A DNA stretch of 64,000 nucleotides from Escherichia coli (GCF_003790525.1 NZ_CP033634.1), one strand, 5' to 3'. Shown: positions 5,430 through 6,527, counted from the stretch's first letter. Notes: generated by a model from the sequence alone, not told the origin. Translations and numbers: made by a program.

Positions 5430-5467
5430 CTTAGCGTACGATTTTTTCCGAATTCTGCGGTTCCCCC
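5430..5467. repeat. 38-bp Tn1721/Tn21-subgroup terminal inverted repeat; outer end at 5467, transposon interior to the left
   Basis: Reverse complement reads GGGGGAACCGCAGAATTCGGAAAAAATCGTACGCTAAG (GGGG...ACGCTAAG Tn3-family IR signature). Confidence 0.8.
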
Positions 5468-5505
5468 TTTATCAGTAATCATATTCACCTCTGCTCTGGT
5501 CGGTC

Positions 5506-6306
5506 ATGCTTTCTTCCCGGTATGTTATAGTTATTAAGATACTTTTGTCCCTGTTCTGTTCCGGAGTGAACATGATTTTTGTCTGTTCTGTTGTACTGGC
5601 TGGCAGGGCATTCACCCTGCAGTTTGCCGGGAAAATGCTGTCCCTTTCTGCAGGAGATGTGCTTCTGATTGATGATGCTGATCGTGAGGATTTTCAGCCT
5701 CATGCTGAGCATATCACTGAGGTGAGGCTGGATGAAAATATCATCCGCAGATATCTGGAGAGTTGTGGCGGCAACCGGGAGGCCGACAACACGGTTTCTT
5801 CTGGTTTCATCAGAGTGGCCTTTGCTCATCCTGCGTTGTTGCGTGACGTTATGCATCATCTGAATTCGGGAGGATTTGTTCATCCCGGATTTTCCGAGCA
5901 GATGTTTTTTTCCTGCATTGCTGTCTTTGCATCAAAAAAAGGCTTTCTTCCTTTGTTGCTGGGCGGAATGCTTTCTGTGGCCGGGAGAGTGAGGCATATC
6001 ATCTGTACTGACCTTTCACGCCAGTGGAAGCTGCGGGATGTCAGCAGTCGTTTGTATATGAGTGAAAGTCAGCTGAAAAAGAAACTGAAGGAAGAAGGAT
6101 GTTCGTTCACCGGAGTGCTTCTGGATGTGAGAATGGGCTATGCACGCCGTCTGTTACAGGCCCGTCTGCCGGTCAACAGGGTGGCCGCGCAGTGTGGTTA
6201 TGTAAGCACATCTTATTTTATCTGCGTGTTCAGGGAATGTTTTGGCGTCACGCCTCACCGGATGCTGGCGCTTCAGGAGCACGGGCAGCATAAAAGTGAA
6301 TGCTGA
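5506..6306 (+). CDS. AraC/XylS-family transcriptional regulator (GadX/YdeO/AppY-like C-terminal HTH); alternative start at 5572
   Basis: C-terminal region WKLRDVSSRLYMSESQLKKKLKEEGCSFTGVLLDVRMGYARRLL...CGYVSTSYFICVFRECFGVTPHR matches the AraC double-HTH pattern. Confidence 0.8.
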   Translation: MLSSRYVIVIKILLSLFCSGVNMIFVCSVVLAGRAFTLQFAGKMLSLSAGDVLLIDDADREDFQPHAEHITEVRLDENIIRRYLESCGGNREADNTVSSGFIRVAFAHPALLRDVMHHLNSGGFVHPGFSEQMFFSCIAVFASKKGFLPLLLGGMLSVAGRVRHIICTDLSRQWKLRDVSSRLYMSESQLKKKLKEEGCSFTGVLLDVRMGYARRLLQARLPVNRVAAQCGYVSTSYFICVFRECFGVTPHRMLALQEHGQHKSEC

Positions 6307-6489
6307 GTTTGAATTATTCTGAAGAACGGCGGGCATTTTATGGAAACGGCACATTTCCGTGTCTCTGTGGTCATTCCCGATTGCTGTTGACGCATCGCCA
6401 CTCACCGGAAATGTGCCGGAATATTTTAATCGTTCTTCACCGTCTGTGAAGGTCCTGTGCTTACATTGCTGAGCGGAAAATGGCTGGTA

Positions 6490-6527
6490 GGGGTTTGAGG
6501 TCCAGTGGAACGAAAACGTACGCTAAG
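6490..6527. repeat. Solo 38-bp Tn3-family terminal inverted repeat (Tn1000/Tn3-like); outer end at 6490
   Basis: GGGGTTTGAGGTCCAGTGGAACGAAAACGTACGCTAAG; no cognate transposase recognised in the window. Confidence 0.7.

Follow-up and report, generated by a model that had tools for sequence, protein, structure and literature searches.

A stretch of 64,000 nucleotides from Escherichia coli (GCF_003790525.1 NZ_CP033634.1), analyzed here at its full length and called the window, contains an AraC-family regulator gene set between two 38-bp terminal inverted repeats (IRs) of the Tn3 family of transposons, IR1 at 5430-5467 and IR2 at 6490-6527. The arrangement raises the question of whether two transposon ends mobilize or control the gene that they frame. 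Our analysis argues, with a probability of roughly 0.8, for an account in two events: the regulator lies on a 1,022-bp island (5468-6489) outside two unrelated Tn3-family elements of different arrival times, one recent and derived from Tn1721, the other older and related to Tn3 and Tn1000. No functional link connects the repeats with the regulator; the bracketing is accidental and reflects ordinary plasmid mosaicism. A first-pass annotation of the same DNA had already described a Tn1721-type IR and a different Tn3-family IR with their elements facing away from each other. Its coordinates and orientations are exact to the base, both identities hold, and the outer ends point at the island, which thus belongs to neither element.

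Taken as the reverse complement of 5430-5467, IR1 reads GGGGGAACCGCAGAATTCGGAAAAAATCGTACGCTAAG, and IR2 reads GGGGTTTGAGGTCCAGTGGAACGAAAACGTACGCTAAG across 6490-6527. The GGGG outer ends of both repeats abut the island, from which the two elements extend away. Each repeat occurs a single time in the window; dinucleotide shuffles of the window returned no match to either at three or fewer mismatches, and the top match to IR2 in 20 shuffled windows reached 21-24 of 38 positions. Neither repeat is a chance match. They have 23 of 38 positions in common, mostly in the conserved termini, and fall into different subgroups. One inner-end IR pattern used in the searches, ACGNNNAAG, was mis-specified and yielded nothing useful.

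The more recent of the two events can be followed most closely, as the window is a close relative of the E. coli plasmid pGZM7d (NZ_CP129283.1; chicken, China), which has an IncFII-family RepA and F-type transfer genes and is colinear with window positions 5248-64000 at 99-100% identity. IR1 shows the features of a Tn1721-group repeat, being 38 bp long with GGGG at its outer end and ACGCTAAG at its inner end, and it is identical in every letter to the published right-hand repeat (IRR) of Tn6433, a Tn1721-related transposon (PMC13085002). It sits 151 bp past the stop codon of a methyl-accepting chemotaxis protein gene, mcp. In the described structure of Tn1721, ordered IR-mcp-res-tnpR-tnpA-IR-tetR-tetA-pecM-truncated tnpA-IR, mcp likewise adjoins one end of the transposon (PMC7319535). 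Together with mcp, the 5' part of a tnpA gene at the start of the window places the element of IR1 in the Tn21 subgroup; by tblastn this part is 100% identical to residues 1-204 of a transposase annotated as 'TnAs1 family' in pGZM7d, and window positions 1-636 correspond to 52305-52940 of that plasmid. What remains of this tnpA, like the partner IR, lies before the first position of the window. In pGZM7d the partner, GGGGAGCCCGCAGAATTCGGAAAAAATCGTACGCTAAG at 49919-49956, is inverted, agrees with IR1 at 35 of 38 positions and is followed by a tnpA of 988 amino acids. There, partner and tnpA abut the other half of a perC-family gene, which ends ...CAGCTTTTTTAT, while in the window IR1 is followed by TTTATCAGTAATCAT, so that 5 bp, TTTAT, are duplicated with respect to the partner side in pGZM7d. 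The inverted partner IR and the target duplication are thus both present in the sister plasmid, with the partner outside the window.

An inverted partner together with TTTAT on both sides is what a single Tn3-family transposition leaves behind, and it identifies one such event in perC. The insertion point, 5468, corresponds to codon 5 of the gene; many plasmids are without the Tn1721-derived element, and in these perC is intact and colinearity with the window starts at precisely this position. Among 72,556 plasmids in PLSDB, only pGZM7d has the same IR1/perC junction, which argues that the insertion is recent and lineage-specific. A Tn1721-derived resistance transposon thus entered codon 5 of perC, duplicating TTTAT, with IR1 as its mcp-side end; IS26 has afterwards deleted the resolvase, integron and resistance genes, and IS1414 has landed in mcp. 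The colinearity comparison finds the resolvase gene, the class 1 integron (dfrA17-aadA5), sul2 and the ISCR2 region of pGZM7d missing from the window, and this part of the window thus represents a resistance transposon emptied of its resistance genes. An 8-bp duplication, GGCAAAAC, borders IS1414 on both sides (3925-3932 and 5248-5255), and the mcp of pGZM7d is without this IS1414. For the regulator, the sole likely effect of these events is that the divergent perC has been lost and that the DNA beyond 104 bp upstream of the regulator's start codon has been replaced.

IR2 belongs to a different branch of the family. It agrees at 35 of 38 positions with the IR of Tn1000 and at 31 of 38 with that of Tn3 (the Tn3 string is found verbatim in many papers). 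Repeats directly beside Tn3-family tnpA genes come closer still, at 36 of 38 in a KPC plasmid (L006) and at 37 of 38 in a Mixta genome (L031). As expected of the Tn3/Tn1000 subgroup, the 38-bp repeat carries a tnpA stop codon in its inner end. The approximately eight codons retained before this stop, ..NNELLS, are comparable to the C-termini of intact transposases (..NNELTS in L006, ..NNELSP in L024 and ..NNELSS in L031), and IR2 with the adjoining 17-19 bp has 89-91% nucleotide identity to tnpA-proximal ends; further upstream the reading frame is lost. The reading of IR2 as a plain Tn3-style cargo-side end is rejected, since a TnpA C-terminus is encoded in the 25 bp on its inner side. No other Tn3-subgroup tnpA was found in the window by tblastn. 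The sole Tn3-family transposase homology, at 3-614, belongs to the Tn1721-type element, in keeping with the earlier remark that the second repeat has no transposase of its own in the window. The partner IR that the first-pass annotation had proposed to look for beyond the adjacent phosphotransferase system (PTS) and GntR genes occurs neither in the window nor anywhere in the complete 90-kb sister plasmid: in a position-by-position scan the best other matches were 23 of 38 in the window and 24 of 38 across pGZM7d, which is chance level, and accordingly no second IR accompanies IR2.

The absence of this partner is explained by a truncation at the far side of the PTS genes. There, a 3' remnant of a Tn3-type resolvase gene (tnpR) encodes residues ~106-185 only, its res region being replaced by plasmid backbone from 10257. 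Homology to the IncK2 backbone of pTMSA1088 begins at this position, which shows where the resolvase gene was cut and joined to a partition region, and with this cut inside tnpR at 10257-10259 the partner IR was lost. The remnant has 81.5% amino-acid identity to the Tn3-like TnpR of the KPC plasmid and 79% nucleotide identity to the commonest plasmid tnpR, and it retains a Pfam HTH_7 domain and the end of a Resolvase domain. It reads towards IR2 with the gene cassette between them, which reproduces the Tn3 arrangement tnpR - cargo - IR. In another assembly (L041), two cargo genes come after a comparable resolvase remnant (82% nucleotide identity), succeeded by an IR whose relative orientation is the same. 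Lacking a transposase, a res site and a partner IR, in the window as in the complete sister plasmid, IR2 is part of an immobile relic, probably of a cargo-carrying element (6490-10259). The first-pass annotation had left two options for IR2, a solo remnant or the terminus of a Tn3-family element that carried cargo, the PTS module included; the tnpR remnant and the Klebsiella junction described next favor the latter, in a decayed and immobile form.

In the Klebsiella plasmid pLVPK (NC_005249.1, 2211-2332), 122 bp are 100% identical to window positions 6490-6611. This stretch begins with IR2 and runs through the tnpA remnant into the cassette side, of which it contains 59 bp; its outside flank is ATAAC in place of TGGTA. 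The shared inner junction with a different outer flank indicates that IR2 acted as a transposon end after it had joined the cassette, and the position of this junction at a different site suggests that the IR2 unit once transposed. In pLVPK and many of its relatives, the 122-bp relic is found beside an IS3-family orfA fragment.

The three genes of the cassette encode a DUF7916 protein, a NagE-like PTS IIBC transporter and a GntR/HutC-type regulator. The same trio forms a conserved cassette on enterobacterial chromosomes (L038, L039), at 75% nucleotide and 88% protein identity, where it sits between rbsD, of the ribose operon, and kup, near the asnA-mioC-gidA region. On plasmids the full cassette is kept in only four PLSDB records, and in four complete E. 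coli genomes. Most related plasmids (e.g. p1_020022, IncK2/Z) have an exact 3.5-kb deletion of 6816-10326, with 2-bp microhomology at the join, that leaves IR2 with ~290 bp and eliminates the tnpR remnant along with the bulk of the PTS cassette. Among draft assemblies the full form is no rarity, with the identical GntR protein indexed in 788 collection blocks. IR2 itself is present at an identity of at least 99% in 419 PLSDB records, and those inspected are solo relics.

These observations can be assembled into an older event. A transposon of the Tn3/Tn1000 clade, with the layout IRL - tnpA - res - tnpR - cargo - IR, would have come to lie beside the island carrying the DUF7916/PTS IIBC/GntR cassette of enterobacterial chromosomal origin. 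Its cargo-side end may have been built from a tnpA-proximal end, as in Tn1721, where a truncated tnpA lies beside the tet-side IR; the tnpA-proximal character of this end suggests that the cassette was captured between a complete copy of the element and a second, inverted end. A later deletion would then have taken IRL, tnpA, res and the 5' 55% of tnpR, fusing the rest to the partition region at 10257-10259. Whereas the identities, coordinates and junctions of the parts, the target duplication, the truncation points and the distribution are observed directly, we infer both the former unity of IR2, cassette and tnpR remnant and the order of the deletions. As the most economical reading, it is probable that the three once formed a single transposon. 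We lean, by a narrower degree, towards the broader proposal that an undescribed Tn1000-clade transposon moved a chromosomal, amino-sugar-type uptake cassette as a unit into E. coli conjugative plasmids and Klebsiella virulence plasmids of the pLVPK type, and decayed thereafter.

Several results weigh against this single-unit history. Immediately inside IR2 the sequence is tnpA-proximal in type, unlike a plain Tn3 cargo-side end, and the extra step of a second, inverted end must consequently be assumed. At the other side of IR2, the 5 bp TGGTA are not colinear with the yiaY-like gene into which related DNA continues, so the present left junction does not represent a simple insertion; island and IR2 must have been joined by a deletion or by some other illegitimate event, with TGGTA possibly the remainder of an original target site. 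The 75-bp spacer between the cassette and tnpR matched none of the sequences compared. Finally, an intact parent was found in none of the collections searched. All 26 of the contigs read among those with the identical GntR protein have the same truncated layout; a PLSDB search with the tnpR remnant returned the four full-cassette plasmids at 99% identity or more, followed by a next-best Tn3-type tnpR at 79%; and complete E. coli genomes yielded no parent. A degenerate IR pattern, applied to one genome per GTDB species, recovered 15 Tn1000-like ends and no exact IR2, while an exact tnpR 36-mer found a single match in JGI metagenome contigs, which was the same truncated plasmid. In a protein search with the 80-residue resolvase remnant, the best non-self matches were ~90% identical and themselves truncated. 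The single-unit history consequently rests on the geometry of the locus and on the pLVPK junction. Literature searches for PTS genes carried by a Tn3-family element brought up nothing relevant.

Given these points, we considered whether IR2 with its eight tnpA codons and the tnpR remnant could be relics of two separate Tn3-family copies, the PTS cassette never having been cargo. In favor of this, the sequence inside IR2 is tnpA-proximal, and a Tn3-type copy ending there would put tnpR on the strand opposite to that of the remnant. The cassette is also found without IR2, flanked by insertion sequences (ISs) in one copy (L037) and on chromosomes, and the searches described above found no intact cargo-carrying parent. 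Such a history nevertheless requires two independent truncated elements in compatible orientation by chance. The junction of IR2, tnpA remnant and cassette, identical over 122 bp in pLVPK beside a different outer flank, and the related resolvase remnants that precede cargo and then an IR (L041) also speak against it. We regard two separate relics as unlikely, if still the most serious competitor of the single transposon. IR2 might instead have closed a co-oriented, Tn21-like transposon (res - tnpR - tnpA - IR) in which the cassette replaced almost all of tnpA, a layout that fits the minus-strand order of tnpR 3' part, cassette, last tnpA codons and IR2. All of the inspected relatives with a similar IR or resolvase (L006, L024 and L041) have the divergent Tn3-type layout, however, and the AT-rich 75 bp that follow the stop codon of tnpR are filled with further stop codons and show no tnpA start, which makes this layout very improbable.

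The idea with which the locus confronts its reader, that the two repeats jointly mobilize or control the regulator as a composite or Tn3-derived miniature element, draws on the mere look of a gene framed by two 38-bp repeats. Their GGGG outer ends face the island, and repeats of two subgroups with so few positions in common do not qualify as the paired ends of one element. The island itself is found at 99% identity or more in ~200 E. coli genomes with neither repeat or just one of them, and the IR1 junction exists in 1 of the 72,556 plasmids. We therefore give a joint unit next to no credence, and return to the account of two unrelated elements on either side of a piece of plasmid DNA.

This island comprises the first 15 nucleotides of perC, the AraC-family gene, the last 24 nucleotides of a yiaY-like gene and TGGTA. 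The perC/AraC segment is present at an identity of at least 99% in ~200 complete E. coli genomes, at 217 places of which 185 are plasmid and 32 chromosomal. At many of these places, on plasmids and chromosomes alike, the match to the window reaches 6484, from where the sequence proceeds into the yiaY-like gene in place of IR2; at others the segment is cut earlier by ISs. The protein product of the regulator gene has the C-terminal double helix-turn-helix of the AraC type, with Pfam matches to HTH_18 (61.2 bits) and HTH_AraC (53.1 bits) that both exceed the cutoff. Against the YdeO model (an NCBIfam equivalog, NF007407) its alignment spans the whole length and scores 203.7 bits, where the cutoff is 348 bits. 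YdeO is its best full-length family match and the GadX DNA-binding domain its best solved-structure match, such that the earlier label of a GadX/YdeO-like regulator is a fair one; by these scores, the protein is YdeO-like and not YdeO itself. A scan of the island for promoters and terminators returned no more sites than in shuffled sequence.

The features on both sides of the island are collected in Table 1. The 402-amino-acid transposase encoded within mcp is that of IS1414, of the IS256 family, and not of IS10.

Table 1. Features of the two Tn3-family elements, the island between them and the adjoining backbone, in window coordinates.
Feature	Coordinates	Strand	Basis or remark
Tn1721-type tnpA, 5' part (first 204 codons)	3-614	minus	same transposon as IR1
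IS26 copy 1, 820 bp	637-1456	plus	14-bp IS26 terminal repeats at 637-650 and 1443-1456; 100% to annotated IS26 of pGZM7d
IS5075 fragment, 161 bp, between the two IS26 copies	1457-1617		colinear with partial IS5075 of pGZM7d
IS26 copy 2, inverted relative to copy 1, truncating the mcp 5' end	1618-2437	minus	terminal repeats at 1618-1631 and 2424-2437; colinearity
Truncated Tn1721 mcp (methyl-accepting chemotaxis protein), first part	2438-3932	plus	colinear with mcp of pGZM7d
IS1414 (IS256 family), 1,315 bp, inside mcp	3933-5247	minus	annotated IS1414 at 100%; Mutator/IS256-family transposase
mcp, last codons	5248-5278	plus	followed by a 151-bp non-coding stretch to IR1
IR1	5430-5467	minus	mcp-proximal 38-bp terminal repeat of the Tn1721-derived transposon; outer end 5467
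TTTAT, one copy of the 5-bp target duplication	5468-5472		same 5 bp (L004 4095-4099) precede the partner IR in pGZM7d
perC, first 5 codons (ATGATTACTGATAAA), cut by the transposon	5468-5482	minus	compared with intact perC of pPK8275-82kb (L004 3906-4109)
YdeO-like AraC-family regulator	5572-6306	plus	244 amino acids from ATG at 5572; 266 from the upstream ATG at 5506
yiaY-like iron-containing alcohol / L-threonine dehydrogenase, last 8 codons including stop	6461-6484	minus	right edge of the perC/AraC/yiaY-like segment
TGGTA, 5 bp beside the IR2 outer end	6485-6489		not colinear with the yiaY-like gene
IR2	6490-6527	plus	38-bp terminal repeat of a Tn3/Tn1000-clade transposon; outer end 6490
Tn3-type tnpA remnant, last ~8 codons	6528-6552	minus	..NNELLS and stop; stop codon in the IR2 inner end
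Cargo cassette, three genes	6553-9941		limits from a 93%-identical IS-flanked copy (L037) and from 75%-identical chromosomal copies in other Enterobacterales
DUF7916 protein	6623-7552	minus	domain search
NagE-like PTS IIBC transporter	7549-8946	minus	domain search
GntR/HutC-type regulator	9180-9929	plus	domain search
AT-rich spacer, 75 bp, from cassette to tnpR stop	9942-10016		no homology to sequence downstream of tnpR in related elements
Tn3-type resolvase (tnpR) 3' remnant, 243 nucleotides, residues ~106-185 and stop	10017-10259	minus	reads towards IR2
Backbone junction, then parA-type partition lead-in	10257-10442		homology to IncK2 pTMSA1088 starts at 10257

Beyond the junction at 10257, the lead-in of the partition operon contains an array of the 8-bp repeat AAGATAAC at 10408-10442. 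Counted as AAGATAAC / ATAACAAG, two such arrays at 10408-10459 and 11472-11574 hold 4.4 and 6.9 copies, plus inverted copies; they flank a small parA-type operon (10467-11392, minus), and their copy number varies among related plasmids. These arrays are probably partition sites. Other observations concern more distant parts of the window. Relative to IncK-type backbones, a ~4.9-kb insertion in umuC (12775-17705) contains, by their annotation names in pGZM7d, a 362-amino-acid hypothetical gene, a PIN-domain gene, an AbiH-family gene and IS2, and is possibly a small anti-phage module. An IS110-family element, annotated as ISShdy1 in pGZM7d, occupies 19025-20689 in the leading region when compared with IncK-type plasmids. 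In the F-type transfer region, colinearity with pGZM7d is broken at 54846-55124 and 56229-56579, and the block between these positions is 98% identical.

The value of these results is mainly one of annotation, in that a confusing stretch of a common E. coli plasmid family, mostly from poultry and human isolates, is explained, the regulator is placed outside any mobile unit, and a perC knockout is recorded for the lineage of the window. One item is mildly new: a decayed Tn3-family element with a PTS sugar cassette, of which a 122-bp trace remains in Klebsiella virulence plasmids. If the proposal of an undescribed Tn1000-clade transposon is correct, a Tn3-family element would have spread metabolic, and not resistance, cargo among clinical Enterobacteriaceae. 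The understanding of Tn3-family elements as such is unchanged.

Each of the components described here has a known counterpart from which it departs in part. The element of IR1 resembles Tn1721 and Tn1722 of the Tn21 subgroup in its terminal repeat, the adjacent mcp, the closely matching partner beside a 988-amino-acid transposase and the 5-bp duplication, and differs in being heavily rearranged, with no tet(A) module in the stretch seen. Its version in pGZM7d carries a class 1 integron, sul2, ISCR2 and IS26, whereas in the window most of this has been deleted by IS26, with mcp truncated and split by IS1414. The regulator resembles the YdeO/GadX group in aligning over its whole length with the YdeO model and in its GadX-type DNA-binding domain, and differs from it by its sub-cutoff score, its location on a plasmid and its divergent pairing with a perC-family gene. 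IR2 shares with Tn1000 (gamma-delta) and Tn3 most positions of the terminal repeat and the tnpA stop codon in its inner end, and with Tn1000/Tn3-like elements of Enterobacterales both the near-identical repeats adjacent to tnpA and the resolvase. Unlike these elements, that of IR2 has no tnpA, res or second IR, its cargo-side end is of the tnpA-proximal type, its cargo is a PTS sugar cassette in place of bla, and its resolvase gene reaches only ~79% nucleotide identity to any tnpR in PLSDB. The closest parallel for such an end is the tet end of Tn1721, where few tnpA codons and an IR likewise close the cargo on the side far from the transposition genes; there the additional end repeats the tnpA end in direct orientation, whereas the element of IR2 would have required an inverted second copy.

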